NCBI GenBank assembly: GCA_965227295.1
Contig: OZ245742.1
Span: forward strand, 2,368,001 to 2,432,000
Length of the DNA: 64,000 nucleotides
Direction: 5' to 3'
Origin: Leptonemataceae bacterium
GTDB taxonomy: Bacteria; Spirochaetota; Leptospiria; Leptospirales; Leptonemataceae
Each line of letters begins with the position of its first letter. Within the stretch, counting starts at the first letter, position 1. The position numbers and the translations under genes were made by a program. The notes beneath the pieces are model-generated. The model was given only the letters and a program-made list of their open reading frames with translations. It did not search any database and was not told the origin of the DNA. Positions 8,902 to 64,000 of the stretch are shown here, in pieces.

Positions 8902-9034
8902 TTGTCTCTTCCGGTCGATGTGTAAAGGAGCAGTTAAATGCTTGCAAGTCGGCGCGAGCCAATCGAGTCCTTCAGCCAGACTGGCACCAGCAATACATAT
9001 TCGAAATCATTCAGAGGACGTCTTATGATTAGGT

Positions 9035-9210
9035 TGTAAGCTTGAAATACTCATCCACGCCTTCAAGCGGCTTCCCAATGATAAGTAGAATGCAGCCCGC
9101 CGAGCACAGGTCTTCGCAAGACCCGTACGTTATTTTTTTGGTGGCGGTTCTGTCTGACGGCCCTCCGGCGAACCGAGGTCCACAGACGCGTGCGTGCGGT
9201 GCCGATTGTA
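9035..9210 (-). pseudogene. Remnant of the 3' end of the integrase-core element at 13667+
   Basis: Aligns with 13667-13841, shares the end TGTAAGCTTGAAATAC and encodes ...PVLGGLHSTYHWEAA*. Confidence 0.85.
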
Positions 9211-9607: not shown

Positions 9608-9611
9608 AGCA

Positions 9612-23554: not shown

Positions 23555-23581
23555 GATTGCTTCCAGGATCGGGCGGCGGAC

Positions 23582-49096: not shown

Positions 49097-49249
49097 CGTC
49101 ACTGTAGTATTAGAATCGGCCGGTTTCGCGATTTGCCCGCGCAAATTCCTGCGACCGCCGCCGCCGATTAAGATAGAGTCGTCCGTCATTCGGTTCATGT
49201 CATCCTCCCAACGCGCACACTATAGCACGGGGGTGTGACATTATTTGTT

Positions 49250-49435: not shown

Positions 49436-51976
49436 TTAAAGTCCCAGCTCGTTCATCTGGTATCTCAGCCGGTTGCGCTTCATGCCCAGCATTTCCGCGG
49501 CCTTCGTTTTGTTGCCGTTCGTCCGCCGCAGCGCGTCCTCGATCAGCGCCCGGGAGTAGGATTGCAGGGCCTCGTCGAAGTTCGGTGGTGTCGCGTTCAT
49601 GTCAGGGGCGGCCGCGGTGAATACCGCGGGCCGGCCGGAACTCAGGGCTGCGACGGGCGCCACGGCGGAGCGGGATGCCTCGCGGACGGACGCCGGCAGA
49701 TGCTCCACGCCGATGTGAGCCGGGTCCGCGCGGTCGGCGGCCAGGGCCTGCATCAACACGTTTTCGAGTTCACGGATGTTGCCCGGCCAGCGGTAGGTCA
49801 GCAGCGCGGCGAGGGCTCGATCGTCGGGTTCCACGGGAGCGAGCCCCGTTTCTTCGCAGAAGTTCTTCAGAATAAAATCCACGAGCACGGGAATGTCCCG
49901 GCTCCGTTCCCGGAGGGGTGGTACATGGACGTGCAGGACGTTGATGCGGTACAGCAAATCCTCGCGGAACGTGCCCGCCTGGACCATGGTCGGCAGGTCG
50001 CGGTTGGTGGCGAAGATGAAACGACAGTCCGCCGGGCGCATCTCGGTCCCGCCGACGGGATGATACTGTCGCTCCTGTAAGAGGCGCAGGAGCTTCGCCT
50101 GCATTTCCAGCGGCAGCTCGCCGACCTCGTCGAAGAAGAGCGATCCGCCCGCGGCCTCGGCGACGCGGCCGGCCCGGGCGTTGCGCGCGTCGGTGAAAGC
50201 GCCCTTCACGTGGCCGAAGATCTCATCTTCCCAGAGCGTCGCCGGCACGGCGGCGCAGTTCACCGCGACGAACGGTCCGGCATCCCGGGGCTGTGTTTGC
50301 GCTTCCTGATCATCGTCGTTCGCCGTGTTGTCGTTGGAAAAGTGGATGAGCCGGGCGACCAGTTCCTTGCCGGTTCCGGTTTCTCCGGTAATGAGGATGG
50401 GCCGCTCGAACTCAGCGTAACGATGGGTGCGGCGAATCACTTCGCGCATGGCCGGGCTGGCCGTTACCAGGTTGCGGTCGCCGACGGAATGGATGATGGT
50501 TTGAGACTCGTCGTCTCCTGCGATGATGCGTTCGATCTCGTCGATGTGCTCGCTGTACTCGGTGTAGCGGTCCCGGGCGTTCTTCAGTACCCGCAACATG
50601 CCGGCGAAGGATTTCGAGAGGGCTACGAGCTCATCCCCTTCGATGTGCGTTGTCTCGTCCGCGACGTCCGGCTGATTGCGGCGTAGTTGGCCGAGGAGGC
50701 GCCGCAGGGGACGCGTCACCGTTTCCCGAAAGAGCAACGGGAATACCACTAACATGAACACGGTTGATGCCAGTACGGCCAGGCAGTACTCCAGGGCGAC
50801 GGCGTGGATCCGCGCGCGATAGTTGTCGTAGCTGAAGCCGTACTCCCGGCTGTCGTCGCGAAAAAAGACGAACGGCCGGCCGGCGATCCAGCGATACGAG
50901 CGTTGGAGTTTTTGAATGGGCGGTGCGCCCACGGCCGGCGGCAGAGTGGATGCCGTTTCCGATAGGCCGGCGTCCGCGGTCCAGAGTTCGGCCAGGGACT
51001 CCCCGGCCTGAACGGCATCGCTCCGTTCGAAGACGACGCGCCCGCGGTCGGTGTTGTTGCCGGGAAGTTCGATGACATATTCCAGGATCGACGGGGCCAG
51101 ACGTTCCAGGGGAACGGCCGCTTCCAGCAACTGCCCGGCGACGTGCACGTCTTCCAGGCGTTCGCGGTTGTACTGCTGTTCTTCACGCTGAATGGCCCGC
51201 ATGCCCAGGATCGAGAGCAGGGACATGATGGCCACGAGGGAGATGCCCACCAGCTTTACAATGAACGAAGACGGTTCGCTGGAAGTGTTTAAGTAGAACA
51301 AAACGTAGAGCGAAAAGATCAGCAGGAAGCCGGAGTTCTCCAGGAGGTTCACCGTTTGTCGGGAGCCGAAGCCCAGGGTCAGCAATACAAACAAGATCGG
51401 GATGGCGAGTTCGAGCAACGTCAGTACAAAGAAGGCGAGCGCCGGGCGATTGAAGCGCGAGTTCCCCGAACCGCGCAGGGCCTGGCGGCCGAGTACGATC
51501 AGCCCCCAGACAAAAGTGATCGCAACCAACGCCGGAATGTACGCGGAGTAGTAGGTACTCTCGTAGTTGTGATTCTGAAAGTTGTAGCGTACTTCCGCGA
51601 GACTTGCGCGCACGGCGTAGTCGCCGAAGGCCAGCACCGCGGCCGCGGCGGTGACGAAGAGGACGATGCGCGCCTCCCGCGGCCAGGCCGGCGACGGCAA
51701 GCGGTAGGCGAACTGGATTTTGAAGATCATGCCGAACAGGACGGCGGCCGCGGCATACCAGCCGGCGGTGCCCCAGGGAGCGTTGATGGAAAAACCAAAG
51801 AGCGAGCCCAGGTTGTAGACGCTGAAGATCAAAAAGAACCCGGCGAGCCAGTAGGTGCGCGTGGTCTTCTTCGGCAGGGACAGCAGATAGAATGCGCTCA
51901 GCAGGGTGAACAGCGTCGGCGTTAACCGGCCGAACGAGCTGGCAGTGAGTGAGATCGCGTCGACAATGAGGAACAT
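49436..51976 (-). CDS. Membrane-bound sigma54-dependent activator (multi-TM sensor, HAMP-like linker, AAA+, Fis HTH)
   Basis: Many N-terminal TM segments; ITGETGTGKELVAR, VNCAA, GAFTDA, FFDEVGEL, FREDLLYR, WPGNIREL, GNKTKAAEMLG. Confidence 0.92.
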   Translation of the reverse strand: MFLIVDAISLTASSFGRLTPTLFTLLSAFYLLSLPKKTTRTYWLAGFFLIFSVYNLGSLFGFSINAPWGTAGWYAAAAVLFGMIFKIQFAYRLPSPAWPREARIVLFVTAAAAVLAFGDYAVRASLAEVRYNFQNHNYESTYYSAYIPALVAITFVWGLIVLGRQALRGSGNSRFNRPALAFFVLTLLELAIPILFVLLTLGFGSRQTVNLLENSGFLLIFSLYVLFYLNTSSEPSSFIVKLVGISLVAIMSLLSILGMRAIQREEQQYNRERLEDVHVAGQLLEAAVPLERLAPSILEYVIELPGNNTDRGRVVFERSDAVQAGESLAELWTADAGLSETASTLPPAVGAPPIQKLQRSYRWIAGRPFVFFRDDSREYGFSYDNYRARIHAVALEYCLAVLASTVFMLVVFPLLFRETVTRPLRRLLGQLRRNQPDVADETTHIEGDELVALSKSFAGMLRVLKNARDRYTEYSEHIDEIERIIAGDDESQTIIHSVGDRNLVTASPAMREVIRRTHRYAEFERPILITGETGTGKELVARLIHFSNDNTANDDDQEAQTQPRDAGPFVAVNCAAVPATLWEDEIFGHVKGAFTDARNARAGRVAEAAGGSLFFDEVGELPLEMQAKLLRLLQERQYHPVGGTEMRPADCRFIFATNRDLPTMVQAGTFREDLLYRINVLHVHVPPLRERSRDIPVLVDFILKNFCEETGLAPVEPDDRALAALLTYRWPGNIRELENVLMQALAADRADPAHIGVEHLPASVREASRSAVAPVAALSSGRPAVFTAAAPDMNATPPNFDEALQSYSRALIEDALRRTNGNKTKAAEMLGMKRNRLRYQMNELGL

Positions 51977-51977
51977 A

Positions 51978-52030
51978 TGCCGCCAGTTTTTTGCCGGTGC
52001 CCGAATCTCTGCCGCCAAAAATTCGTCGGT
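51978..52030. promoter_or_regulatory. Tandem candidate activator-binding sites (UAS)
   Basis: TGCCGCCA-N7-GYCGGT at 51978-51998 and 52010-52030, 32 bp apart. Confidence 0.5.
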
Positions 52031-52088
52031 CAGTCTTTTTCTACATACAGGTGCGTCGCGTTGATGCGGTGCGTGTCTGTTTTTGCGC

Positions 52089-52216
52089 CAGGGATTGGAA
52101 GGGTTGCGCCGGGAGGCGCAAGTCCGGAGCGCGCAGCGCGCAGGACCGGAGCGATAGCGGAGCCCTGGAAAGCCCGCCGGGCCGCCGCCTCCGCGGCGCG
52201 GCGGCCCGGGGCGCCC
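52089..52216 (+). repeat. Diverged member of the GC-rich multi-hairpin repeat family
   Basis: Shares gcggagccc, ccgccgcctccgcggcgcggcgg and terminal CGCCC with 9479-9602; stems are kept with different sequence. Confidence 0.72.
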
Positions 52217-52260
52217 AAATGCTCGTGTTCCAGGTCCTTGATTCTATTTGGTTTTTTGGA

Positions 52261-52276
52261 TGGCACACCTCTTGCA
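52261..52276 (+). promoter_or_regulatory. Sigma54 -24/-12 promoter
   Basis: TGGCACACCTCTTGCA matches TGGCAC-N5-TTGCA; divergent from a sigma54 activator gene. Confidence 0.88.
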
Positions 52277-52338
52277 AATGTCCCGCGTACGGCAGTCGTG
52301 AACCGCCGTGAAAATAACAAATACCAGGAAGGGAATTC

Positions 52339-53172
52339 ATGAATTTGAAGAAACTCAGTTTGATGCTTGCGGCGTTCTTAATAGCCGGAAGCGCCGTGAG
52401 CCTCAGCGCCGCGGATTATACCATCTTCGTACACGGCCGCTCGGGCCAGAACCACTGCGGTACCGGGACGAGTGACAACAACAACTACTGGGGCTCCGCG
52501 AAGAACATCAATACTTCGACCACCAAATACTTCGTCGGTTACGACGGATCCTCGGACCCGCGGACGTGGGGGAATTGCCGCGCACAATCCAACATCAACA
52601 CGGTCTTCAATCAACGTTGCCGCGGTTCGAACAACTGCAAAGTGATCTGCCACAGCGCCGGTTGCTACGCCGTCGAGTACTTCCTCGATAAGACCTCCAC
52701 AAACTTCAACATCGACTTCGTGATGGCCTCGTCCAGCGCTGCCGGCGGATCGGAGCTGGCCAACCTGGCGTTCTGGGCCTGGGGCGGAATGGACAACGCC
52801 CTCAAGACCGGCAACGCCCGCGGTTCCTACAATCACAACGACATGAAAGGCGTCGGCATCTGGGCCATTGCCGGTTATCGTTCCCAGTGGTACGTGGACT
52901 GGATGCTGCCGGGTAAAGACGACGGCGCCGTGGCCCTGCACAGCACCTGCGGTCATCGTACCACCGGCTCGCACAGCAAGTGCAACCAGTCCCGCTACAG
53001 CTCGCACTTCATCTGGAGCGGCGGTTACAACAACAACAACGGCTGGAGCGGCGATCGCAAGGCTTACAACAAGACCCACACGGGCGACGGCAGTAACTCC
53101 ATCAACACGGCCATGAAGAAAGAATGGAACGACTGTAAGTCGACGACCATCAACGGCTTCCGCTGCAAATAA
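52339..53172 (+). CDS. Secreted Cys/Asn-rich alpha/beta hydrolase (lipase/esterase-like)
   Basis: Signal peptide, IFVHGRS, ICHSAG elbow, AAGGSELAN, DDGAV, C-terminal His; 7 Cys. Confidence 0.8.
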   Translation: MNLKKLSLMLAAFLIAGSAVSLSAADYTIFVHGRSGQNHCGTGTSDNNNYWGSAKNINTSTTKYFVGYDGSSDPRTWGNCRAQSNINTVFNQRCRGSNNCKVICHSAGCYAVEYFLDKTSTNFNIDFVMASSSAAGGSELANLAFWAWGGMDNALKTGNARGSYNHNDMKGVGIWAIAGYRSQWYVDWMLPGKDDGAVALHSTCGHRTTGSHSKCNQSRYSSHFIWSGGYNNNNGWSGDRKAYNKTHTGDGSNSINTAMKKEWNDCKSTTINGFRCK

Positions 53173-53224
53173 GCGCGAGCCCGACGCCGCCTCCGGCGCC
53201 GCCCTCATTATGAACCACTCACCG

Positions 53225-53257
53225 GCCGCGGCTCACCGGAGTCGCGGCTTTTTCTTT
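53225..53257 (+). terminator. Rho-independent terminator
   Basis: gccgcggctc-accg-gagtcgcggc followed by tttttcttt. Confidence 0.8.
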
Positions 53258-53608
53258 GCCGGCCGCCCGGTCGTTTGTGCGCGTTCTGCAAGAATTGTAC
53301 TTGATTGTCACAAATTGCAAGCTTGTTTGTCGCAGCTTTCGGACTGGCCCGGAATAATCCTTCATCCTGGTCAGATGTTGTTAGCGGATCTCACTACATC
53401 GAATTCGGGGACGATATCTATTCCTGCCCGTAGAATTTTCGTTGTAATTTTCGTTGCCGAATAGTCCGATACAAAACAGATTACTTGATGTTTTTTAGTA
53501 AAGGTCGCTCCGCCGGAACTAAAAAATACGGCAATCTGCTTTAAGGAAATAGTGATTAAAGACTAGAACGGGTAGATCACAGGTCAAATCACAACAGAGG
53601 TAACCACC

Positions 53609-54025
53609 ATGAACGCAACGGCCTCCCGACACATCAAGTTAAACACCCCCGCTATGGAATCCGCAAAATCCATTTTGATCATCGACGACTCCGCCTCCAT
53701 CCGCAAACTCGTTAGCATCGCTCTCGGCGGGCGGGGCTACGAACTCATTGAAAGCGTGGACGGTGCCGAAGGTCTCGACCTCGTGCGCAGTCGGAGCGTG
53801 GACCTGATCATCTGCGACGTCAACATGCCGAACCTGGACGGTATCTCGTTCCTGCAGAAAATTCGCGAAATCGACGCGCACCGTTTTACGCCGGTCATCA
53901 TGCTGACTACGGAATCCCAGGAAGCGCTGAAAGAGCAGGGCCATGCGGCCGGCGCCCGCGCCTGGATCGTCAAACCGTTTCAGGCGGAGCAGCTCGTGGC
54001 TGCAGTCGAACGTCTTCTGGTGTGA
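53609..54025 (+). CDS. cheY: Chemotaxis response regulator
   Basis: ILIIDDS, CDVNMPNLDG, HRFTPVIMLTTE, AWIVKPF; RBS AGAGG. Confidence 0.92.
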   Translation: MNATASRHIKLNTPAMESAKSILIIDDSASIRKLVSIALGGRGYELIESVDGAEGLDLVRSRSVDLIICDVNMPNLDGISFLQKIREIDAHRFTPVIMLTTESQEALKEQGHAAGARAWIVKPFQAEQLVAAVERLLV

Positions 54026-54138
54026 GCTGACTGCTGTAGTCAACTCTCACTGAATTTTCACATAAATCGAACGCTGAGATTCGGAATTCCGGTTGGCGAA
54101 ATAGCGGGCCGGGATGTATTATTGTAGACGCGTCCCAA

Positions 54139-54540
54139 ATGAGTTTCCTGGAGATAGAAGATCGGAGCACGGGCGAGCGTTTTGTTCGTGTTCGCGGTGC
54201 CATGGTCATACGCCATGCTGCAAATCTGGCGGAAGAGTGGAAGACTGCCCGGGTCGGAGTCGATAATCTAATCGTCGATCTTTCCGGTGTCAGCGAGCTC
54301 GATAGCTCGGGTGTGCAGTTGCTCGTCGCTTTGAAAAAAGAATCGCTGGCTTCGGGAACATCGTTCAAACTCGTGCAGCACTCTCCGGCGGTTCTTTCCG
54401 TTTTCGCGCTCTACGGACTCGCCGCGTTTTTCGGCGACCGCATTCGACTCAAGTCGGGTGAGCGTGATGCCTACGGTTTTCTCTACGGGCTGCGACGTGG
54501 CAATTATGGATCTATCCGAAGCGAGAGACGTTTTTCTTGA
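54139..54540 (+). CDS. STAS domain protein
   Basis: VDLSGVSELDSSGVQLL; located between cheY and cheA. Confidence 0.85.
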   Translation: MSFLEIEDRSTGERFVRVRGAMVIRHAANLAEEWKTARVGVDNLIVDLSGVSELDSSGVQLLVALKKESLASGTSFKLVQHSPAVLSVFALYGLAAFFGDRIRLKSGERDAYGFLYGLRRGNYGSIRSERRFS

Positions 54541-56593
54541 TGAATGTGCCGAGTTGTTGGAGCGCATGGAGCAATGCCTGCTCGCCCTGGACGAAGATCC
54601 TGGTGACGACGAGGCCGGCCGCGCGCTCTTTCGGGCCGTGCATACCATCAAAGGTTCAGCCGGCGTCTTCGGCTTCAGCCACATCGAAGACTTCACCCAC
54701 GACCTGGAAAACCTCCTCGATCTTGTGCGCTCCGGCTCCGTTCCCGTGGAACCGGAACTGGTGCGCCTCTTTCTGGATTGCCGCGATCACATCGGCGTGC
54801 TGCTCGGTCTCATAGATGCTTCCGGTGTCGTGCATGCGGCGGGCACCGAGACCGCGGCCCGGGGCACCGTACTCATGCAACGCGTACGCGAGCGGCTCCC
54901 CGCTACGAAAGAAGATTCTTCTATAGAAGAGAGCGCAGGAAAGACCGCGGACAGCGCCGCGCATGCCGCCGCCGAAACGCACTGGCGCCTGAGCCTGGAA
55001 TTTCAACCGGACGTGTTTCGCCACGGCCTGGATCCGTTGCCGTTCGTTCGTTATCTGCGTGAAATCGGCACCATCCGCGACGTCATTACACACACTGATC
55101 GTGTGCCGACCCTGGAGCAGCTCGATCCCGAAAGCTGCGTGCTGGACTTCGAGATCCTGTTTACCGGCGCCGTCACCGAAGCACAGCTCCGGGAGGCCTT
55201 TGAGTTCGTTGAGCACGATTGCAAGATTCGCATTGAACGTGTTACGGAAGACGCGGTGAAGGATGAGGCCGCCGCCCCGAAGTCAGCCGGCGCAAGCCGC
55301 GTGCCGATCAGCGGCGACTCGTTCAGCGCCCTCGCGGCGGCCGGGCATCGGGAGAGTCGTTCCTTTCGCGTGGACGCGCGCAAGCTGGATCACCTGGTCA
55401 ACCTGGTCGGGGAGTTGGTCATCTCCACGGCGCACCTGGCCCAGGTCGCGGACTTCGACGAGAACTCCGGCGCGGCAAGCATTACGGATCAAGTATTGAA
55501 GCTCGTCGGCGAAATTCGTGACGGCGCCTTCGGCCTGCGCATGGTGCCCATCGGCGGCATCTTCAGTCGCTTTCGCCGTGCCGTGCACGATCTCTCCGCG
55601 GAGTTGCAGAAATCCGTCCGCCTGGAGACTCACGGCGGCGACACCGAACTGGATCGCAACATCGTCGAACGCCTCACCGATCCGCTCATGCACATCGTTC
55701 GTAATGCCGCGGACCACGGCCTGGAATCTCCCGCCGAACGCGCGCAGGCCGGCAAGGACCCCGAGGGTCGCATCACCCTGCACGCCTTCGGTGAGACCGG
55801 TGAGATTGTGATCGAAGTCAAGGACGACGGCCGCGGTCTCGACGCCGCCGCCATTCGACGCAAAGCCGAGAGCCAGGGGCTGGTCGCTCCGGAGCAGGAA
55901 CTCACGCGTGAAGAAGTGCTGCGTCTGATCTTTCATCCCGGCATGTCCACGGCGGCCAACGTTACGAACATTTCCGGCCGCGGCGTGGGCATGGACGTGG
56001 TGTTGCGGAACATCGAAGCGTTGCGCGGTCGGGTGGAGCTGGACTCCGAACCCGGCAAAGGGACCACTGTGCGTATCATCCTGCCGCTGACCCTGGCCAT
56101 CATCGACGGTTTTCTGGTGCGTGCCGGCGAAAGTCACTTCGTGATTCCCCTGGACATGGTGATGGAGTGCGTGGAGTTCGAAGAGGCCGGTACGGCCGCA
56201 CGCGGCGTGGTGAACCTGCGCGAAGAGGTGCTGCCCTTCGTTCGATTGACTTCGTTCTTCGAACTCACACCGCCGCCGCCGGGGGCGCGGACAAGCCTGG
56301 TCGTGGTCCGCCACGGCGCGCGCCGGGCCGGCCTGGTCGTCGAAGACCTGCTCGGCGAGTTTCAATCCGTCATTAAATCTCTGGGACCGCTCTTCGAGAA
56401 CGTGCGCGGCCTGAGCGGTTCTACGATCCTGGGCAACGGTGCCATCGCCCTTGTCCTCGACGTACCGACGTTGCTGGATCTGCTCGAAAACGAAGACGCG
56501 TCTTCGATGCGCGGCGGCGTGGATCTCTACAGTGTGCGCGAGGGATTGCTACGGGAACTGGAAGCGCCGGATGATTCGACACGGGGAGACTGA
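54506..56593 (+). CDS. cheA: Chemotaxis histidine kinase
   Basis: [59 protein letters not shown]-terminal CheW domain. Confidence 0.97.
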
Positions 56594-56597
56594 GGCC

Positions 56598-59500
56598 ATG
56601 CGACGACTGAGTGTTACGCAACGAAAGTTAGTGATGAGCGCGCTGTGTGCGGCGGTGCTGGTCTGCGCTTTTACCGTGTCGGCCGACGTCACGGCGAACT
56701 GGGGCTACACCGGCGCGAATGGACCGCGGCACTGGGCGAAACTGAGCGACGAGTTCTCCGTATGCGCGAACGGACGGCGCCAGTCACCGATCGATTTACC
56801 GGAAGCGTCCGCGGGCACGTCCGCGGGTTCCGCGCCCATGCTTGCATTTACGTACGAAGCAAGCGATCTGGAAATCATCAACACCGGCCACACCATCCAG
56901 GCGAACGTGCCGCCGGGCAACAGCCTGCGCGTCGGTGATGATGTGTACGAACTCGTGCAGTTTCATTTTCACAGTCCGTCCGAGAACCAGGTCGACGGCC
57001 GCTCGTATCCCCTGGAGATGCACCTCGTCCATCGTAACGAGGACGGGGACCTGGCCGTGGTCGGCGTGCTGTTCGAAGACGGCCCGGCCAATGCGGAACT
57101 CGCCGGGATCTGGGAGGACCTGCCGGAGGATGCCGGGGCTACCGTCGAAGTATCGCTGAACCCGGAGCAGCTTCTGCCGGCGGAGCGTTCGTTCTACCGG
57201 TTCGGCGGTTCGCTGACCACGCCGCCGTGCAGCGAAGGCGTAGACTGGTTTGTCCTGGCGGAACCGCGGACGATTTCCACCGGGCAAGCCCGGGCCTTCG
57301 TCGATTTGATCGGCGAAAACGCACGTCCGCCGCAGCCGCTCTTCGGCCGCACGATCACTTTCGTGAGCGACGGCACGGCCCGCCGTCTCGGTGAGGCGGA
57401 GCTGACACCGCAGGCCCCCGGACAGGATGCTCCGCATGAGCCCGCGGACGGCGAGGGCGATTGGGGCCTGTACGCCTTTATCGCCGGCGTCCTTATTTTT
57501 GTTGCAATCTTTCTTTTTTTGATGATGCGTAAATCTGGAGACTCTATGAACTTTCTTGATCGTTTTACTCTACGTACGAAGATTCTCGGCCTCGTAATGC
57601 TGCTCATATTGATGAACGCCGCGGTAGCCGCTTACGTCATGCTGACGCTGAACAGCCTGGGCCGAGAACTCGTGGAAATCGCTGAGCGGGACCTGCCGCT
57701 GAGTGATGCCGTCGCCGCGGTGACGGAGAAGCAGCTGGAACAGGCTGTGACCTTTGAACGTACCCTGCGTTTTACGGATCGTCCGGCGCAGTTTCGCGAA
57801 AACGAACAGGCGTTCCTCAAACTCAACCGCCAGGTGGAAAAGGGCCTCGCTGAGACGCGCCAGTCCGTGGATGGTTTTTTGAACGGGCGATTGTCCTCCC
57901 GGGCCCGAACAGTTTTTGAAGATGCGTCCGTGCGCCTGGCGGAGATTGCCGAACTGCACGAGGACTACGGCGATCTCGGCACGGCGATGCTCGCGGCCGG
58001 CGGGGAGGCAGGTACGGCGGACGACCGACGTGTGGAAGAACTACAAACTACTGTTGACAAAATGTTAACGTCCCTCCAGCGCGATCTGGCGAAGTTTACC
58101 GAGGCCACCGCCCGGGACGCCGAGGAACACGAGCGAACCGCCTTTATCGTGGTGAGCGTTCTCTCCGTGGCGGTCTTGGTCCTCGGGCTGCTGCTGGGCC
58201 TGGGCATTGCACGGAACGTACTGCGCCAGCTCGGTGGAGATCCGGCGCTGCTGGCGACCATCGCGGAGCGAGTCGCCGGGGGCGAGTACGACGCCGCCGC
58301 GGAAGTAGTCGCTCAGGATAGTAGCGATGACGGAGACAACGAGGCCCGGGGGCTCATGGGATCCATGGTAACCATGGCCGCCAATCTCAAGGCGAACGTC
58401 GGTGAGATGCTGCGCGTCCAGGTGGCCCTCGATAACTCTTCGACGAACGTAATGATCTGCGATCCCGAGTTCACCATCATGTACATTAACAACGCCATGC
58501 GCAGTTTGTTCCAGCGGGCCGAGGCGGACATTCGCAAAGACCTGCCGCAGTTTTCGGCGGACTCCGTGCTCGGTTCGTCCATAGATCGATTCCACAAGAA
58601 CGTGGCGCACCAGCGCGGGGTCCTGAACAATCTGGCCGGCACGCATCGCACGACCATTCAGCTCGGCGGGCTCACTGTCGATTTTACTGTCAACGCGATC
58701 GTGGACTCCGACGGCAAGAAGTACGGCTTTGTCATGGAATGGAGGGACCGCACGGACGAGGTCGCCGTGGAACGCGAAGTGGAAGCCATTGTTACCTCCG
58801 CTTCGCGCGGGGATTTCACCGGTCGCATCGACATGCAGGGCAAACACGGATTCTTTGAGCGTCTCAGTGAAGGCATCAACGCGCTCATGGAAACCAGCGA
58901 TACCGGCCTAAGTGAAGTTGTGCGCGTGTTAACAGCCATGGAGGCCGGCAATCTTACGGATCGCATCGACAACGAGTACGACGGGACCTTCGGTCGTCTC
59001 AAGGACGCCTCCAATAATACCCAGGAGCGTCTCTCCGACGTAATCGTCAACGTGCGTTCGAATGCCGAGGCCCTGGCCGGCGCCTCGGAGGAAGTGAGCG
59101 CGACGGCGCAGTCCATGAGCCAGGGGGCCTCCGAGCAGGCGGCCAGCGTGGAAGAGACCGGCGCGTCCCTCGAAGAGATGACGGCCAGCATCACGCAAAA
59201 CGCGCAGAACGCGAAGGCGACGGAGGACATTGCCCTCAAGACCGCCACGTCCAGCGAGGAGGGCGGCAAGGCCGTCGCCGAAACCGTGGAAGCCATGCGC
59301 CGCATTGCGGAGAAGATCTCCATTATTGAAGAAATCGCGTATCAAACGAATCTCCTGGCGCTGAACGCCGCCATTGAAGCGGCCCGGGCCGGGGAACACG
59401 GCAAGGGTTTTGCGGTCGTAGCTACCGAAGTTCGTAAGTTAGCCGAGCGTTCCCAGGTGGCGGCGCAGGAAATCGGCGGCCTGGCTTCGAACAGCGTGGA

Positions 59501-59891
59501 CATTGCCGAACGCGCGGGCACGTTGTTGGATGAGATCGTGCCGAGCATTCGCAAGACCGCGGACCTGGTGCAGGAGATTACCGCGGCGTCCCAGGAACAG
59601 AACACGAACGTCGAACAGATCAATGCGGCGGTAGGCCAACTCGACAAGCTGGCCCAGAGCAACGCCTCTTCCGCCGAAGAACTGGCAAGTACCGCGGAAG
59701 AACTTTCCGGCCAGGCCCAGCAGTTGCAGCACATGATGGAGTTTTTCAAACTCAAAGCGGAAGCGGCCGGTAACGCCGGCACGATTCCCGGCTCTCCCGC
59801 CACGCCGGCGGCGAAACCGGAACCGAAGCCTGCGCCGCGCCTGGCTCCGACGCCGCCGGAATTTCAGGAGGACGATTTTGAGCGCTTCTGA
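56598..59891 (+). CDS. Alpha-carbonic anhydrase - methyl-accepting chemotaxis protein fusion (signal peptide, CA, TM, TM, helical sensor, TM, HAMP, Aer2-type PAS, HAMP, MA, pentapeptide)
   Basis: One uninterrupted frame: WGYTG...[35 protein letters not shown]; three TMs; [11 protein letters not shown]...[37 protein letters not shown]-terminal DFERF. Confidence 0.93.
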
Positions 59892-60462
59892 GGCCGCGGA
59901 AACCCGGCGCGGCCGGGAAGAACAGTTTCTCACGTTTCACCTGGGCGACGAGGTCTACGGCATTGAAGTCCTGCGCGTGAAAGAGATTCTCCAGTACTCC
60001 GGCATCACGAAGGTGCCGCGGACGCCGCCGTACATCCAGGGTGTCATCAATCTCCGGGGCAGCGTGGTGCCGGTGGTGGATTTGCTGCACTTGTTTGCGG
60101 AAGCGTCCGTGAGCGTGGGACGCAAGACCTGTGTGATCATTGTGGAGGTTCGCTCCCAGGCGCAGGAGGGCGGCATTGAAGCGGGCATCATCGTGGACGC
60201 CGTGGACCAGGTACTGAACGTCAACACGACTTCGATCGAAGCGGCCCCCGGTTTTGGAACGAAGGCGGGTCCGAAGTTTATTCGCGGCATGGCGCCGCGC
60301 AACGCCGCCAGCGACGCCGCCGAATCCTCCGGGGACGAGGCGGGCGGCGACGCCGACCGACACAAGGACGAGGGCTTCGTGATTTTGCTGGACCTGGACA
60401 AAATCCTGGTGCCGGAACATCTGCAGGCCCTGGGCGATGCGAACGCCGTGTCGCAGGACTAA
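59878..60462 (+). CDS. cheW: Chemotaxis coupling protein
   Basis: [39 protein letters not shown] start with AGGAGG 6 nt upstream. Confidence 0.95.
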
Positions 60463-60484
60463 GATACTCTGAGATTATGTTAGC

Positions 60485-61327
60485 ATGATGACGCAGTCCC
60501 CCGCCACGTCTCCCGCGGCCGAGCTCAGCGACGCCGACTTTTCCCTGTTCCGGACGCTCATGGCCGTCGAGGCCGGGGTTCACCTCGGAGACAACAAGAA
60601 GACCCTGGTCGTTTCCCGCCTCGGGCGTCGCGTGCGGGACCTGGCCGGAGGGAACTTCCGTGCGTACCACTCGCTCTTAAAGGATGATCCCGTGGAACTG
60701 CGCTTCGCCGTGGACGTGCTGACCACGAACGAAACGTTTTTCTTTCGTGAGCCGCAGCACTTTCAGTTCCTGGGACGGGAGATCCTGGCGCGGGCCTCCG
60801 GCAAACTGCGCATCTGGTCGGCGGCGTGTTCCACCGGCGAAGAACCCTACAGCATCGCCCTGGTCTGCGCGGACCGCGGTGTGTCGGCGCAGATCCTGGC
60901 CACGGATGTGAACGCCTCGGTCCTGGGCAAGGGCCGAGCGGCCTTGTATCCCCTGGAACGGAGCAGGGAGTTGCCCGCGTACTACTTAAAGAAATTCGGC
61001 CTGCGCGGCGTGCGTTCCATGGGACACTACTTCACGTTCACGCCGGAGGTTCGTCGCATGGTAACCTTTGATCGAATGAACCTTGTGGCCGGTGCGCTGC
61101 CGGGTCAGGAATTTGACTGTATCTTTCTCAGAAACGTAATGATCTACTTCTCCCGGGAGACCAAGGAGCAGGTACTGCGCCGCCTGGCAGGGTGTTTGAA
61201 GATCGGCGGTTACCTGATGATCGGTCACTCGGAGACCCTGCACGGCCTCGGCGCGAACACCGGTAATCGCAAGGCTTTCGGCTTCCAACTGGTGCGGCCG
61301 GCGATCTACCAACGGGTTGTGGAATGA
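60485..61327 (+). CDS. cheR: Chemotaxis methyltransferase
   Basis: LTTNETFFFREPQHF, IWSAACSTGEEPYS, FLRNVMIYF, IGHSE. Confidence 0.96.
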   Translation: MMTQSPATSPAAELSDADFSLFRTLMAVEAGVHLGDNKKTLVVSRLGRRVRDLAGGNFRAYHSLLKDDPVELRFAVDVLTTNETFFFREPQHFQFLGREILARASGKLRIWSAACSTGEEPYSIALVCADRGVSAQILATDVNASVLGKGRAALYPLERSRELPAYYLKKFGLRGVRSMGHYFTFTPEVRRMVTFDRMNLVAGALPGQEFDCIFLRNVMIYFSRETKEQVLRRLAGCLKIGGYLMIGHSETLHGLGANTGNRKAFGFQLVRPAIYQRVVE

Positions 61328-61848
61328 ATCATACGAGGCCGGAGTTCATAGTCGAAATCTTTTTGCAGCCCGGGGAGTTCCTCTGGGGCGACGAGAGCAA
61401 TCGCATTCGGACCCTCCTCGGCTCGTGCGTGAGCCTGACTTTCCATCATCCGAACTTAAACATCGGCGGGATGTGCCATTTTATGCTTCCTTCCCGGGAG
61501 CGAAAGCTGGATGAAGGCCTTTCGGGGCGTTACGCCGACGAGTGTCTGCTTTTGTTTATTGAAGCCATTCAACGCAGCGGGACGCGACCCCGGGACTACG
61601 AGGTCAAGATGTTCGGCGGCGGGAACATGTTCCCGACCCTGGCGGAACAGAAGGCCGGCGTCATCGGTGAGCGCAACGTAAACACGGCGCGCGATCTCAT
61701 TGCCCGGCACGGCCTCAAGCTGGTGGCCGAAGACGTCGGCGGCGTGGTACACCGGCGACTGCTCTTCGACGTATGGAGCGGGGACGTCTGGCTCAAACGC
61801 CTGGATCCGGTGCGCGAATCCCCGGCAGCGGTGGCACGGCCGTCTTAA
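61324..61848 (+). CDS. cheD: Chemoreceptor glutamine deamidase
   Basis: TLLGSCV, GGMCHFMLP, KMFGGGNMF, IGERN, EDVGG. Confidence 0.95.
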   Translation: MNHTRPEFIVEIFLQPGEFLWGDESNRIRTLLGSCVSLTFHHPNLNIGGMCHFMLPSRERKLDEGLSGRYADECLLLFIEAIQRSGTRPRDYEVKMFGGGNMFPTLAEQKAGVIGERNVNTARDLIARHGLKLVAEDVGGVVHRRLLFDVWSGDVWLKRLDPVRESPAAVARPS

Positions 61849-61871
61849 TATGCGCCGGGTAATCCTTAGCA

Positions 61872-62972
61872 ATGGCAGATGAAGGCGGCATACGAGTCCT
61901 GGTGGTGGACGATTCGGCCGTGGTCCGCCGAACCATGACCGAAATTCTCCAGGACGACCCCGGCATTCGCAGCATCGAAACCGCGGCGGATCCCATCTTT
62001 GCCCGACAGAAGATGCAGGTCTTTCGCCCGGACGTCATGATCCTGGACATCGAGATGCCGCGCATGGACGGCCTCACGTTCTTAAAGCAGATCATGTCCG
62101 AGTCGCCGCTACCGGTGCTCATCTGTTCCACGCTCACCCAGGCCGGCGCCCCGGCGACGCTCGAAGCCATGCGCTACGGCGCCCTGGGGGTGATCGCGAA
62201 GCCCGGCCTGGGGTTGAAAGGTTATCTCGAAGATGAGGCCGATCGGCTGCGTCGTTCCGTGCGCCAGGCCGCCGGGGTCCGACTGAAGTCGCGTTCCGGC
62301 ACGGGTTCGCTGAAGGCGGAAGCCACCGCGGCGCGCGCCTTCGAGGCAAGCGCGGCAAAGAAGACGCCGGCAGTGAGCGGGCGCAGCGGATACGATTTGA
62401 TTGCCATGGGTACGTCGGCGGGCGGCACCACGGCCCTGGAGGTGGTGCTGAGCGCCCTACCGGTACAGTGCCCGGGCATCGTGGTGGTGCAGCACATGCC
62501 GGCGAAGTTCACCGCGGCCTTCGCGGACCGCCTGAACGCGCACAGCCCGCTGGATGTCAGCGAAGCGAAGGACGGCGACGAGGTCCGGCCGGGTACGGCG
62601 CTCATTGCTCCCGGGGATCGGCACATGGTACTGCGCTCATCTTCGGCAGGTAAAAGTTACTCGGTGCAAATTAAGGACGGTCCGCCGATCAATCATCATC
62701 GTCCGTCGGTGGACGTGTTGTTTCGTTCCGTCGCGGTTACGGCGGGGCCACGGGCGTTGGGTGTGATCATGACGGGCATGGGCGACGACGGCGCCGCGGG
62801 TCTGGAAGAGATGCGCGACGCCGGCGCGTATACGATCGGTCAGGACGAGGCCTCGTGCACGGTCTACGGCATGCCGCGGGCCGCGTTCGAACGCGGGGCG
62901 GTGATGCAACAGGTGGCGCTGACTTCGATTCCGGCGGCGATTCTGCGCGCGTTGTATGCGGCGAAGGGCTGA
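61872..62972 (+). CDS. cheB: Chemotaxis methylesterase with REC domain
   Basis: VLVVDDS, LDIEMPRMDG, GTSAGG, VQHMP, HRPSVDVLF, TGMGDDG, YGMP. Confidence 0.97.
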   Translation: MADEGGIRVLVVDDSAVVRRTMTEILQDDPGIRSIETAADPIFARQKMQVFRPDVMILDIEMPRMDGLTFLKQIMSESPLPVLICSTLTQAGAPATLEAMRYGALGVIAKPGLGLKGYLEDEADRLRRSVRQAAGVRLKSRSGTGSLKAEATAARAFEASAAKKTPAVSGRSGYDLIAMGTSAGGTTALEVVLSALPVQCPGIVVVQHMPAKFTAAFADRLNAHSPLDVSEAKDGDEVRPGTALIAPGDRHMVLRSSSAGKSYSVQIKDGPPINHHRPSVDVLFRSVAVTAGPRALGVIMTGMGDDGAAGLEEMRDAGAYTIGQDEASCTVYGMPRAAFERGAVMQQVALTSIPAAILRALYAAKG

Positions 62973-62975
62973 GGC

Positions 62976-63075
62976 CGTAACGCAAACTCTGGATAACGTT
63001 ACCGTACGCAACGAATTCCGTTCGAACTACGGCGGCATGTTCGGAATGTTCGGCCTCTTCCTGGCATCGCCCGGG
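62976..63075 (+). pseudogene. Possible fragment of a DUF4345-like membrane protein gene
   Basis: Startless frame encoding LDNVTVRNEFRSNYGGMFGMFGLFL; resemblance from memory only. Confidence 0.25.
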
Positions 63076-63116
63076 CGTACTCAAAATTTCCGTGCACCTG
63101 TAAAAATTTATGCGGT

Positions 63117-64000
63117 CTACGTTCGGGAGTCTCCTCCCTGAATTTCAGCTCTCAAGCGTGACGCATCCCGGGCGGGGGAAGCGCCGAAGAAGCGAGCGTA
63201 TTCCCGGGTAAACTGGGAGGCGCTTTCGTAGCCGACTTCTACGGCAACATGTGTTACCGGAATGCCTCCGAGCACCAACAGGCGCCTGGCCTCCAGCAGC
63301 CGCAGTCGTTTCTGGAATTGAAGGGGGCTCAGGCCGGTGATTTGTTTGAATCGGCGATGAAACGTCGTGACCGCCATGCCCGCCCTGGCTGCCAGACGTT
63401 TGATTTCCAGTGCTTCCGCGTAGTGACCGTGAATCCACTCCAGGGCCCTGTGGAGATTCGTTCCTCCTCCTTCCGCGAGGCAGTGTTGTCGCAGGCGCCA
63501 TCCCTGCGGGCCGGTCAGAACCCGGTACAGGATTTCGCGTTCATACGCCGGCGCAAGGCCGGGGATGTGTTCGGGTGTTTTTGTAAGTCGTAGCAAGCGC
63601 AGCCACGCATCGAGGAAGTCCGCCGTCGGTGTGCAGGCGGAGAAGGTTTCGATGGCAGCGCTGTCATCCCGGGAATCGTTCGAAAGATCTTTTAATAAAT
63701 CCAGAAGCGGAGGCCGTGTCAAGTTGAGGCCCAGCGATACGTACGGGAGGCCCCGCGGTCCCTGATGGACGCGTCCGGTTGCCGGCACCCGGGCGGGGAT
63801 GACGAAGTAGGACGGGGCCTTCAGCAGGACCACATCGGTGCCGATGGAAATCGTTTTCGCTCCCTGAACCACGAGTCCGATCATCGGTTCGTAAACGGCC
63901 GCGAGCTGGTGTTCGGGAACTTCACCGCGGATCATAACCACGCCGGGTAAACCGGTCTCTGTCGGTTCGGTGCCTGCTTCGATCGTTAGCCGGGCAATCT
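63117..64000 (-). CDS. AraC-family transcriptional regulator (YqhC-like); 5' end outside the window
   Basis: VYEPMIGLVVQGAK, REILYRVL, FKQITGLSPLQFQKRLRLLEAR, VGYESASQFTREYARFFG; frame open to the window edge. Confidence 0.93.
   Translation of the reverse strand, partial: IARLTIEAGTEPTETGLPGVVMIRGEVPEHQLAAVYEPMIGLVVQGAKTISIGTDVVLLKAPSYFVIPARVPATGRVHQGPRGLPYVSLGLNLTRPPLLDLLKDLSNDSRDDSAAIETFSACTPTADFLDAWLRLLRLTKTPEHIPGLAPAYEREILYRVLTGPQGWRLRQHCLAEGGGTNLHRALEWIHGHYAEALEIKRLAARAGMAVTTFHRRFKQITGLSPLQFQKRLRLLEARRLLVLGGIPVTHVAVEVGYESASQFTREYARFFGASPARDASRLRAEIQGGDSRT

Follow-up and report, generated by a model that had tools for sequence, protein, structure and literature searches.

A chemoreceptor with an N-terminal alpha-carbonic anhydrase domain in a Leptonemataceae bacterium: a candidate receptor for CO2

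The locus and its gene cluster

The window, a 64-kb stretch of DNA from a Leptonemataceae bacterium, contains one carbonic anhydrase (CA) and one methyl-accepting chemotaxis protein (MCP), and both reside in a single fused gene (P0001; Table 1). An initial annotation, made from the letters of this DNA, had placed the gene as the sole receptor in a cheY-STAS-cheA-MCP-cheW-cheR-cheD-cheB cluster; this order is borne out, and no second MCP is present in the 64-kb window. The CheB match (NF001965) reaches 422 bits, over its cut-off, the CheD match (NF010020) 189 bits, under the cut-off of 236, and the match of the STAS gene product to TIGR00377 39 bits, under the cut-off of 53.45. The NCBIfam alignment of CheA begins at residue 17, and the true start of this kinase is probably downstream of the listed GTG.

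In content the cluster matches the Che2/Aer2-type set, namely CheY, CheA, CheW, CheR, CheD, CheB, an Aer2-like receptor and an anti-sigma-antagonist gene. The same Che genes together with an anti-sigma-antagonist-like gene are found in Vibrio vulnificus che2 and Shewanella oneidensis che1, and Aer2-containing clusters of this kind are discussed as regulators of stress or RpoS, not of motility (PMC9855816, PMC10107281). The resemblance had gone unmentioned in the initial annotation.

Table 1. Genes of the chemosensory cluster and segments of the fused receptor, with positions in the window.
Feature	Residues	Position	Strand	Evidence
CheY-like single-domain response regulator		53609..54025	+	Pfam Response_reg; NCBIfam
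STAS / anti-sigma-factor-antagonist-like protein		54139..54540	+	Pfam STAS_2, STAS
CheA histidine kinase		54458..56593	+	Hpt, H-kinase_dim, HATPase_c and CheW domains
CA-chemoreceptor gene (P0001)	1097 aa plus stop	56598..59891	+	open frame; Pfam domains
Signal-peptide-like N-terminus	1-29	56598..56684	+	basic start, hydrophobic 11-29, VSA then DV; sequence and hydropathy
Alpha-carbonic anhydrase domain	32-255	56691..57362	+	PF00194; PDB alpha-CAs; 18/18 conservation; model pLDDT 74-93
Pro/acidic linker (predicted disordered)	256-288	57363..57461	+	composition; pLDDT
Extra transmembrane helix TM-A	289-311	57462..57530	+	hydropathy; model helix 289-310; begins at W289
Short basic loop (putatively cytoplasmic)	312-328	57531..57581	+	DNA and junction alignment; contains GGAG 57537-57540 and ATG 57546
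TM1	329-351	57582..57650	+	hydropathy; models
Predicted four-helix-bundle sensor (putatively periplasmic)	352-514	57651..58139	+	AF2 model; homologue Pfam matches; Atlas; conservation
TM2	515-539	58140..58214	+	hydropathy; models
Membrane-proximal HAMP-like region	540-601	58215..58400	+	model helices 549-560 and 564-576; Atlas clusters carry HAMP
Aer2-type PAS domain	602-722	58401..58763	+	3VOL E 2e-58; 4HI4 E 5e-28; Pfam PAS
Di-HAMP after PAS	~723-815	58764..59042	+	aligned to HAMP part of 3VOL; Pfam HAMP_2 750-809
Kinase-control (MCP signalling) hairpin	~816-1055	59043..59762	+	Pfam MCPsignal 877-1018; Tsr structures; model helices
Disordered C-terminal tether with pentapeptide DFERF		59763..59888; DFERF 59874-59888	+	pLDDT <50 for 1049-1097; xZxxZ rule
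CheW		59878..60462	+	Pfam CheW; listed TTG start overlaps receptor gene end
CheR methyltransferase		60485..61327	+	Pfam CheR, CheR_N
CheD deamidase		61324..61848	+	Pfam CheD
CheB methylesterase		61872..62972	+	Pfam; NCBIfam NF001965

Reading frame and architecture

The sole stop in the translated gene is the terminal one, in agreement with the earlier proposal that the frame runs from CA to MCP without interruption. The reading frame in the mechanical list begins at GTG 56439, within cheA and upstream of ATG 56598, which lies 4 nt past the stop codon of cheA, behind the sequence GGGGAGA. Pfam assigns Carb_anhydrase to residues 41-254, PAS_8/PAS_4 to 606-722, HAMP_2 to 750-809 and MCPsignal to 877-1018, and the complete order from the N- to the C-terminus is a signal-peptide-like segment, alpha-CA, 34-residue linker, extra transmembrane helix (TM), TM1, four-helix-bundle sensor, TM2, PAS/di-HAMP and MCP.

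A hydropathy scan detects hydrophobic segments at 11-29, 291-309, 329-347 and 515-533, i.e. the signal-peptide-like segment and the three TMs that had been claimed; the former is also seen in 17 of 18 aligned relatives, the exception, P0020, being N-terminally cut. Five Arg/Lys residues occupy the loop behind the extra TM, and the stretch ahead of this helix is acidic. Such a charge distribution is compatible with the topology put forward in the initial annotation, in which the CA and the helical sensor would be periplasmic and the signalling domains cytoplasmic. The C-terminal part is not the normal two-TM MCP of the initial annotation, since an Aer2-like PAS with a di-HAMP is inserted into it.

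The alpha-carbonic anhydrase domain

With PF00194 the domain scores 145.5 bits (cut-off 27), and in the PDB the N-terminal part is best matched by bacterial alpha-CAs (4xz5, 5hpj, 6im0 and 1kop; E 2e-62 to 6e-58), with whose catalytic motifs those of the window CA line up. The zinc-binding His, proton-shuttle His, gatekeeper Thr and disulfide Cys named beforehand were all located. They are H123, H125 and H142 (zinc), H98 (shuttle), T207/T208 and the pair C56/C211, and neither these residues nor E129 vary among the 18 aligned fusions; the motifs concerned are NTGHT (95-99), QFHFH (121-125), SPSEN (126-130), EMHLVH (140-145) and [10 protein letters not shown] (204-213, the gatekeeper Thr motif). 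In terms of numbering, we take the zinc ligands to correspond to His94, His96 and His119 of hCAII, His119 presumably being matched by H142, the first His of EMHLVH, the pair T207/E129 to the gatekeeper pair Thr199/Glu106, and H98 to the proton shuttle His64.

Conservation was tallied over 53 receptor-linked CAs, comprising 48 fusions with a usable CA domain and 5 CAs encoded by split genes (see below); P0080, which retains only 41 CA residues, was excluded. H125, H142, T207, T208, C56, C211 and W217 are each kept in 53/53, H123 in 50 and the shuttle His in 49. One zinc ligand and the shuttle His are gone from three proteins (P0029, P0033 and P0057), so catalysis is not universal in the family. 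The window CA, with its full residue set, is apparently catalytically competent.

Some 220 residues of this domain align with solved secreted bacterial alpha-CAs (4xz5, 5hpj, 6im0, 1kop, 4c3t and 4g7a; E 2e-62 to 7e-50), with which it shares the fold family, the catalytic residues, the Cys pair and, putatively, an N-terminal export signal. Those proteins are stand-alone soluble enzymes, whereas a linker and a TM connect the window CA to a receptor.

Linker, extra helix and junction

The 34 residues between the end of the CA and W289 include 8 Asp/Glu and 4 Pro, and pLDDT is <50 over residues 264-289 of the full-length model. Among the fusions the linker measures 34-101 residues and varies in composition, the window having the shortest one, which is acidic, versus basic or His/Ser-rich linkers in other fusions. 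Low model confidence and variability in length and composition fit a tether and not a rigid transmission element. W289 is invariant in all 18 aligned fusions, and the junction as a whole (W289, TM, K/R-G-G, M-x-F-L-x-x-M-K-V-G-T-R) is in frame in each of the 18 proteins. A frameshift between CA and MCP, which the initial annotation had named as a finding that would refute its proposal, is not borne out, and the fusion, as judged from the sequences, is not an artefact.

Many CA-less relatives start at the profile position of Met317, and the in-frame ATG 57546 that encodes this residue is likely the ancestral MCP start. The N-terminus of a two-TM receptor is cytoplasmic, and the extra helix is the topological cost of fusing an exported protein to it. 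A run of seven T (57514-57520) lies inside the TM-A coding sequence; this run, the GGAG and the in-frame ATG had been overlooked in the initial annotation.

The sensor domain

The AF2 model of the sensor consists of four helices, modelled in blocks mostly with pLDDT >90. Homologues of the sensor match PF12729/PF02203 and the Atlas gives 0.97-0.98 to TarH/4HB clusters; the window's own sensor has no Pfam match at E <= 0.01. Foldseek returned generic helical bundles only, none at E <= 0.001, among them the ligand-binding domains of PcaY_PP and Tar (all E >0.001). The receptor resembles the Tar/Tsr type (TarH, 4HB_MCP_1) in its succession of TM1, predicted four-helix bundle, TM2, HAMP and signalling hairpin, and differs from it by the added putative signal peptide, enzyme domain and third TM, and by the conserved D-x-P kink and membrane-near acidic residues of its sensor.

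Conserved sensor residues are G355, E357, I361, D365, P367, E387, R388, H454, E480, F500, T501, E509 and E512. They are equally conserved in CA-less relatives, and a comparison of 40 CA-linked with 119 CA-less receptors revealed no sensor position specific to the CA-linked group; thus nothing marks the sensor as a bicarbonate or proton site. Both kinds of receptor are intermixed in the sensor tree, where 26 changes are needed and the starred branches alone force 8-9.

The PAS/di-HAMP module and the signalling part

The PAS domain is flanked by HAMP on both sides, according to model helices before it (residues 540-601, which have no Pfam HAMP match) and to the 3VOL alignment after it. The haem-pocket His and Trp of Pseudomonas aeruginosa Aer2 have aligned equivalents in His666 (58593-58595, in FHKN) and Trp715 (58740-58742), and W-x-D-R-T is kept; we take the two residues to be the counterparts of the haem-ligating His234 and the O2-stabilising Trp283. 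The module, which the initial annotation had missed, is probably a second gas input for which haem and O2 binding are predicted. In the full-length model the PAS region has pLDDT <50 because the underlying alignment holds no homologues there. The 120 best-scoring relatives of the C-terminal half all lack PF00194; the CA-receptor architecture is not unique to the source genome, and the PAS-containing version alone seems to be.

The signalling hairpin scores 126.6 bits with PF00015 (cut-off 34.6), aligns to the Tsr structures 6s1k, 3zx6 and 8c5v (E 4e-48) and forms long helices (800-930 and 932-1055) in the full-length model. The terminal DFERF satisfies the xZxxZ rule (Z = F/W/Y) given for CheR/CheB-tethering pentapeptides in PMC7390727, and 23 of 44 fusions end likewise.

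Among known receptors, Aer2/McpB of P. aeruginosa and Vibrio spp. is like the window receptor in its PAS and di-HAMP, represented by 3VOL, and the NCBIfam Vibrio Aer2 model is the best whole-protein match; however, NF041847 reaches 364 bits where its cut-off is 1200, and its match is confined to residues 598-1057. Aer2-type receptors are soluble, in contrast to the membrane-bound window protein with its three TMs, putatively periplasmic sensor and CA. VvAer2 has the C-terminal pentapeptide EWEEF, an aromatic ending of the kind that the window receptor also has, and its signalling module is classed as 36H (PMC10107281); the window hairpin shows two 7-residue gaps relative to Tsr, one per arm, which suggest that each of its arms lacks one heptad compared with the 36H module.

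Recurrence of the architecture

Purpose-built HMMs identified 49 CA-receptor fusions, the window protein and 48 others, among 194 retrieved proteins. The fusions come from Desulfobacteraceae, Thermodesulfobacteriota, Ca. Magnetoovum and metagenome proteins, and divide into 37 with CA, sensor and MCP, 8 with CA and MCP but another sensor, and 4 with CA and sensor that lack an MCP match, being either truncated or endowed with another output. By hydropathy nearly all 49 have a TM after the CA and one on either side of the sensor (single segments of P0025 and P0039 are under the threshold). With 17 other aligned fusions the window protein shares all elements of the family, from the signal peptide through to the MCP.

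A genome survey covered 43 loci carrying the same sensor type. Three encode a fused CA-receptor, and five have a separate secreted alpha-CA gene some 25-35 nt upstream of an MCP with this sensor; the prospect that all homologues would be separate genes, raised in the initial annotation, is thereby dispelled. The remaining 35 have no CA in the flank examined, which for one of them (L007) was <1 kb upstream. Two of the three fused loci are in che clusters (L020 with cheY, cheA and cheW; L036 with cheW, cheA, cheR, cheD and cheB). The split loci, four from Ca. Thiodiazotropha and one from Sedimenticolaceae, form one tight clade within a single gammaproteobacterial lineage, and their CAs bear a signal peptide but no C-terminal TM.

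In the CA tree most receptor-linked CAs fall into one group (46 of 48 fused and the 5 split), and constraining the window CA into this group is not rejected and improves the likelihood (p-AU 0.728). The sister genome L037 has retained the signal peptide, linker and extra TM and lost the CA domain, so the CA is dispensable for keeping the receptor. We consider the CA-receptor architecture to be under selection, because there are 48 further fusions, because the catalytic residues are near-invariant and because a split-gene form exists. A literature search found no paper describing a CA-chemoreceptor, in keeping with the earlier statement that no characterized receptor of such architecture was known.

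A candidate receptor for CO2

Uncatalysed hydration of CO2 has a half-time of tens of seconds, and in eukaryotic CO2 sensing a carbonic anhydrase front end turns CO2 into HCO3-/H+ for a downstream detector. The reading that we favour, at a probability of roughly 55%, is that, by the same logic, the tethered enzyme interconverts CO2 and HCO3-/H+ beside the sensor and so lets the receptor follow CO2, an ability combined here with a probable haem gas input. The periplasmic face of the receptor would consist of the four-helix-bundle sensor and the alpha-CA, the latter attached through the extra TM and a linker that is flexible. If the CA keeps CO2, HCO3- and H+ at equilibrium around the sensor, and if the sensor reads either bicarbonate or protons, the receptor would report a rise or fall of ambient CO2 on the sub-second to second time scale at which chemosensory systems make their comparisons. 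The signal would pass from TM2 through HAMP to the Aer2-type PAS/di-HAMP, which probably binds haem and O2, so that a CO2-derived periplasmic input and a cytoplasmic gas input would be integrated ahead of CheA control. CheR, CheB and CheD would provide adaptation, DFERF at the C-terminus serving as the tether for CheR and CheB, and the output would be the single-domain response regulator. The STAS protein of the cluster suggests that this regulator may act on a partner-switch or stress pathway instead of on the flagellar motor.

Bicarbonate has a precedent as a chemoeffector in bacteria: arginine, bicarbonate and acid are given as signals of Helicobacter pylori TlpA (PMC8406319). The latter is thus likewise a chemoreceptor tied to bicarbonate and acid, but has a dCache sensor without an enzyme domain, an input module unrelated to that of the window receptor.

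A more elaborate version, in which an active CA makes CO2 readable, the haem-PAS senses O2 and a dedicated Che pathway ends in a STAS partner switch, is less likely than not. If true, one receptor would weigh CO2 against O2, i.e. the balance of respiration versus carbon fixation; no bacterial chemoreceptor with a working enzyme as its input module would have been described before it, and it would offer a molecular handle on bacterial CO2 sensing.

Alternative explanations

Alpha-CAs bind anions such as sulfide, cyanate and nitrate, and RPTP-gamma carries a CA-like ectodomain, said to lack zinc ligands, on a transmembrane signalling protein. The CA of the window might, in a manner resembling RPTP-gamma, be the ligand-binding input itself: CO2, HCO3- or an inhibitory anion (sulfide, cyanate and nitrate were considered) at the zinc would alter the docking of the CA on the four-helix bundle, and signalling would proceed by contact instead of by a diffusible product. 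The three CAs that remain fused despite the loss of a zinc ligand and the shuttle imply a non-catalytic role in these proteins, RPTP-gamma-type PF00194 proteins (P0054 and P0055) are among the distant matches, and the named hosts are sulfate reducers and sulfur oxidizers, where sulfide is abundant. The signalling parts of RPTP-gamma and of eukaryotic CO2 sensing are not homologous to those of the window receptor, whose CA keeps its zinc ligands. A docking mechanism sits poorly with a disordered linker of such variable length and composition and with a sensor devoid of residues specific to CA-linked receptors, and the full catalytic set, kept in 50/53, would be needless in a pure binding domain. 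We regard contact signalling as unlikely.

Fusion could alternatively serve placement or co-expression, the receptor acting as an anchor that keeps a periplasmic CA near the membrane or the receptor arrays for inorganic-carbon handling or local pH buffering while the bundle senses something unrelated. The sharing of all conserved sensor residues with CA-less relatives, the scattered presence of the CA over the sensor tree, the natural CA-deleted orthologue in L037 and the lack of che genes near the split loci would all agree with this. Yet the association is specific, since 48 fusions with a usable CA join it to a chemoreceptor-type module and their CAs are mostly of one lineage; another lineage keeps the pairing in the form of neighbouring genes; no gene for a transporter or carboxysome was seen beside the window gene or at L003; and a complete signalling receptor would be superfluous for an anchor. 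This makes mere placement quite unlikely, and a receptor that follows CO2 through its tethered enzyme remains the preferred explanation.

A third alternative, that CA and MCP are not translated as a single product across the junction, whether through a sequencing or assembly error in the T7 run that joins a CA gene to an MCP gene or because the MCP is made mainly from ATG 57546, is very improbable. In its favour, a T6 would end the CA frame at TGA TGA and a T8 at a TAA within 10 nt, GGAG stands 5 nt before the ATG, whose product ([12 protein letters not shown]) resembles the N-terminus of CA-less relatives, and GC falls to 0.49 at 57438-57557 (0.616 gene-wide; GC3 0.57 over codons 281-320), but LMMRKSGDS after the T run matches the TM-end and K/R-G-G motif of 18/18 fusions, so the T7 frame is right. 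A C-terminal TM is lacking in the separately encoded CAs of the split loci, and roughly one in three aligned fusions (e.g. P0015 and P0020-P0023) has no internal Met, so an internal start is no family feature. An extra CA-less isoform starting at Met317 would be compatible with the CO2-following receptor.

The fusion gene and its carbonic anhydrase domain

The fusion of an alpha-carbonic anhydrase (CA) to a chemoreceptor (MCP), proposed in the initial annotation, is borne out by translation and by Pfam and PDB matches: the gene is a single open frame with one stop, at its end, the CA motifs are present, and the che gene order is as described, with a receiver, a STAS protein and CheA encoded upstream and CheW, CheR, CheD and CheB downstream. 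The product is also the sole MCP of its operon, since no second CA or MCP was found elsewhere in the 64-kb window. Its ATG lies 4 nt past the cheA stop and is preceded by GGGGAGA; a mechanical ORF list starts at GTG 56439, within cheA, and thereby extends the frame. In a scan of 51900-63300, promoters and terminators showed no excess over shuffled sequence (3 vs 2.1 and 14 vs 12.1, respectively).

Residues 1-321 match solved bacterial alpha-CAs (4xz5, 5hpj, 6im0, 1kop and others) with E values from 2e-62 to 7e-50, and the alignments include the stretches [15 protein letters not shown] and [12 protein letters not shown]. By hCAII numbering, we take H123, H125 and H142 to be the zinc ligands, H98 to be the shuttle His, E129 and T207 the gatekeepers, and C56/C211 the Cys pair. 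A hydropathy scan found hydrophobic segments at 11-29, 291-309, 329-347 and 515-533, in agreement with the N-terminal segment plus three transmembrane segments (TMs) expected earlier. An acidic stretch precedes residue 289, five Arg/Lys lie within 312-328 and an Arg follows 539, charges that fit a topology with the CA and the periplasmic four-helix bundle (residues 352-514, hereafter the sensor) outside and the remainder inside. The C-terminus, DFERF, fits the xZxxZ pentapeptide rule stated in the methods of PMC7390727.

Features of the fusion protein (residues) and of the window (nucleotides)
Feature	Position	Strand	Remarks
Carb_anhydrase	residues 41-254		Pfam, 145.5 bits (cut-off 27)
PAS_8/PAS_4	residues 606-722		Pfam
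HAMP_2	residues 750-809		Pfam
MCPsignal	residues 877-1018		Pfam
Fusion gene	56598-59891	+	1097 residues
Three family-less ORFs	51977-53464	+	upstream of cheY
Terminator-like stem	53224-53249		strong; within third family-less ORF
Sigma-54 activator	49436-52018	-	860 aa
C-5 DNA methylase	48002-49198
FliG homologue	44156-45340	-	TIGR00207, 229 bits
Assimilatory nitrate/nitrite cluster genes	15300-24922	-	NirB, CysG-like methylase, rubredoxin-fused NIR_SIR_ferr protein, MFS transporter
Fusion protein in nitrate/nitrite cluster	within 15300-24922	-	1173 aa; molybdopterin oxidoreductase + pyridine-nucleotide-disulphide reductase + BFD domain
Group II intron reverse transcriptase/maturase and two rve_3 integrase-type transposases	275-1690, 7233-8303, 13695-14612
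Large ORF, no Pfam match	1811-6217		1468 aa
Large ORF, no Pfam match	9456-12410		984 aa

Recurrence and genome context

Residues 1-560, used as the query of a word-index search, matched 55 proteins, many of which carry both PF00194 and PF00015. When the window protein was aligned with 17 of these matches, the catalytic residues were invariant and the three TMs stood at matching positions in all 18 proteins. A profile search over 1.84 billion representatives yielded extra fusions. By our own HMMs, the 194 proteins collected include 49 CA-receptor fusions (the window protein among them). CA, this type of sensor and MCP are combined in 37 of them, CA and MCP with another sensor in eight, and CA and sensor with no MCP match, through truncation or a different output, in four. 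Nearly all have a TM after the CA and one on either side of the sensor, single segments falling under the hydropathy threshold in P0025 and P0039. High profile-search scores were also obtained by proteins of up to 2519 aa with 5-12 tandem alpha-CA domains (P0056, P0060, P0069, P0065, P0152 and others).

GTDB genomes were scanned with a sensor-only alignment of five sequences, which gave 43 loci, all outside the window genome and the best of them 33% identical. Three loci, in Thermodesulfobacteriota, 'Deltaproteobacteria' and Desulfobulbia MAGs, are fused. Five others, four from Ca. Thiodiazotropha and one from Sedimenticolaceae, are split: a separate alpha-CA gene precedes the receptor gene by about 25-35 nt. 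At the remaining 35, no CA was found within the fetched flank. The CA of the split loci has a signal peptide and lacks a C-terminal TM; these loci form one tight clade in the sensor tree and hence represent one lineage. The split form explains the extra TM: the N-terminus of a two-TM receptor is cytoplasmic, and a secreted enzyme cannot be attached there unless the chain crosses the membrane once more. Of the three fused loci, two belong to che clusters, with the gene orders cheY-cheA-MCP-[CA-MCP]-cheW and [CA-MCP]-cheW-cheA-cheR-cheD-cheB; the split loci lie outside such clusters. At the first of these fused loci (L020, 3553-16719), five consecutive MCP genes with near-identical signalling-domain scores follow cheY-cheA, one of them being the CA fusion.

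Our full-text search of the literature found no description of a chemoreceptor linked to a carbonic anhydrase, and public sequence records use the generic names 'carbonic anhydrase family protein', 'methyl-accepting chemotaxis protein' and 'hypothetical protein'. The apparently enzymatic input module is unprecedented for a chemoreceptor; we know of no chemoreceptor that has a working enzyme in this position. The detection of CO2 as a signal by bacteria is poorly understood, and the window locus with its approximately 50 relatives offers a concrete candidate for such sensing. The named source organisms, namely sulfate reducers, a magnetotactic Nitrospirota and sulfur-oxidising symbionts, live in steep gradients of O2, sulfide and inorganic carbon. 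The extra TM also shows cleanly how a membrane receptor whose N-terminus is cytoplasmic can take up a secreted protein at that end with the topology left intact.

Conservation and loss of the carbonic anhydrase

Conservation was assessed in 53 receptor-linked CAs, comprising the five split ones and 48 fusions with a usable CA (P0080, which keeps 41 CA residues, was excluded). H125, H142, T207, T208, C56, C211 and W217 are kept in all 53, H123 in 50 and the shuttle His in 49. H123 is replaced by Asp in P0029 and P0033 and by Gln in P0057, and none of these three retains the shuttle His.

In a quick CA tree, 46 of the 48 fused CAs and all five split ones fall in one group of 57, with the window CA outside. 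An independent origin of the window fusion, suggested by this tree, was not supported: the constrained tree was better by 18.9 lnL and was not rejected by the AU test (p-AU 0.728), so a common origin of the window CA with the group is compatible with the data.

A natural deletion variant occurs in a sister MAG. Within the same cheY-cheA-MCP-[X]-cheW context, the receptor at L037 (7638-9620; compare 6873-9620 at L020) retains signal peptide, linker and extra TM and is devoid of the CA domain of about 225 aa. Receptors with and without a linked CA are interspersed in a quick sensor tree, which requires 26 changes, 8-9 of them forced by the starred branches alone. Together with L037, this mixture indicates that the CA domain has evidently been lost more than once.

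Sensor, linker and structure models

The AlphaFold model of residues 289-545 (mean pLDDT 81.3) contains the extra TM, then TM1, which leads into a helix 1 that is kinked at D365-P367; helices 2 and 3 come next, and helix 4 extends into TM2. Foldseek matched the sensor model to generic helical bundles only, among them the PcaY_PP and Tar ligand-binding domains, with none at E <= 0.001; in the protein atlas, residues 317-600 lie next to TarH/4HB_MCP+HAMP clusters (0.97-0.98). The full-length model has a mean pLDDT of 61.3. Its values are 74-93 for the CA and 71-93 for the sensor, and they fall below 50 in the linker (264-289), in the C-terminal tail (1049-1097) and, solely because the alignment contains no homologues there, in the PAS region. 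In the window protein, an acidic, Pro-rich linker of 34 aa separates the CA from the TM; its counterpart in the remaining 17 aligned fusions measures 58-101 aa and is mostly basic or rich in His, Ser and Gly.

Conserved sensor positions are G355, E357, I361, D365, P367, E387, R388, H454, E480, F500, T501, E509 and E512. No residue specific to CA-linked sensors was found among 40 CA-linked and 119 CA-less receptors, a comparison that omits P0077, P0080, P0170, P0188, P0025, P0194 and the eight other-sensor fusions. Conservation is equal in the two sets, and consequently no CA-specific ligand site is marked.

Possible role of the enzyme

Our preferred reading, to which we assign a probability of roughly 0.55, is that the tethered CA is an enzymatic front end that lets the receptor track CO2 at the pace of chemosensing. 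The enzyme would bring CO2 to equilibrium with HCO3- and H+ beside the sensor, the sensor would detect one of these products, and the receptor would then track CO2 on the chemosensing time scale; in the window receptor, this CA-derived signal would subsequently be merged with the PAS input. Uncatalysed CO2 hydration is slow, and since catalysis takes this step away, the design makes clear physical sense. What speaks most against a strictly catalytic and indispensable CA is that three CAs lack H123 and that the whole domain has repeatedly disappeared.

An unlikely alternative is that the CA itself senses, through contact with the sensor. Slightly less probable again is mere anchoring or co-expression of the enzyme. 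Very improbable is a gene that is mis-joined or internally initiated, although at the DNA level the junction does look suspect. A T7 run (57514-57520) falls within the extra TM, both other frames hit stops immediately, and GC content dips to 0.49 against 0.616 gene-wide. Downstream of the run, GGAG is followed by an in-frame ATG at 57546 (Met317), whose product would start [12 protein letters not shown]; in the profile search, the conserved Met that follows the extra TM is precisely where many CA-less receptors begin, and a CA-less isoform initiated there is conceivable. The continuity of the frame was nevertheless upheld in all 18 aligned proteins, which share W289, the TM, K/R-G-G and M-x-F-L-x-x-M-K-V-G-T-R. 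Since the residues encoded right after the T run fall in this conserved motif, the frame is correct, and protein comparison settles the question of the junction.

An Aer2-like cytoplasmic half

The receptor had been taken for a normal two-TM MCP, a description that has to be revised. Residues ~602-815 match the PAS and di-HAMP domains of Pseudomonas aeruginosa Aer2 (PDB 3VOL, E 2e-58) and the PAS alone matches 4HI4 (E 5e-28); H666 (in FHKN) and W715 (in W-x-D-R-T) align with two Aer2 PAS residues, which we take to be the haem ligand and the O2-stabilising Trp. These matches identify the cytoplasmic half as Aer2-like. The best whole-protein match in NCBIfam is the Vibrio Aer2 model, at 364 bits far under its cut-off of 1200. 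Compared with Tsr, the signalling hairpin has two 7-residue gaps, one in each arm, which suggests that either arm is a heptad shorter than in Vibrio vulnificus Aer2, stated to be 36H in PMC10107281.

The PAS-bearing version seems to be unique to the window protein. PAS was found in none of 22 further fusions scanned, and none appears in the precomputed Pfam annotation of the remaining fusions matched by residues 1-560. Conversely, when the C-terminal half was searched, its best 120 relatives all lacked PF00194; they are 52-62% identical, share PAS, HAMP_2 and MCPsignal, and have further PAS domains, globin or four-helix bundles at their N-termini. The window protein therefore unites a CA/four-helix-bundle input belonging to one family and the PAS/di-HAMP core typical of Aer2 proteins, and by adding an Aer2-type gas sensor it could reveal how one receptor integrates two gas signals. 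Many Aer2-like PAS-HAMP_2-MCP receptors (e.g. P0199, P0249 and P0257) have an N-terminal globin (PF00042), in some of them alongside a four-helix bundle. Many kinds of input module seem compatible with the Aer2 core.

The window che cluster resembles two Aer2-containing clusters with anti-sigma-antagonist genes, Shewanella oneidensis che1, which includes CrsR/CrsA and for which a part in RpoS control has been suggested (PMC9855816), and V. vulnificus che2, with RsbU/RsbV (PMC10107281). By this analogy, the output of the window receptor may be non-flagellar.

Other features of the window

The FliG homologue, barely over its cut-off, lies apart from any other flagellar gene seen in the window and is next to an endonuclease-III-like ORF and the C-5 DNA methylase. 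The first ~500 residues of the sigma-54 activator have no family match, and its gene is divergent from the three family-less ORFs, the third of which may not be a gene, given the stem within it. An assimilatory nitrate/nitrite cluster is present as well, and the large ORFs without a Pfam match lie between the mobile-element genes.
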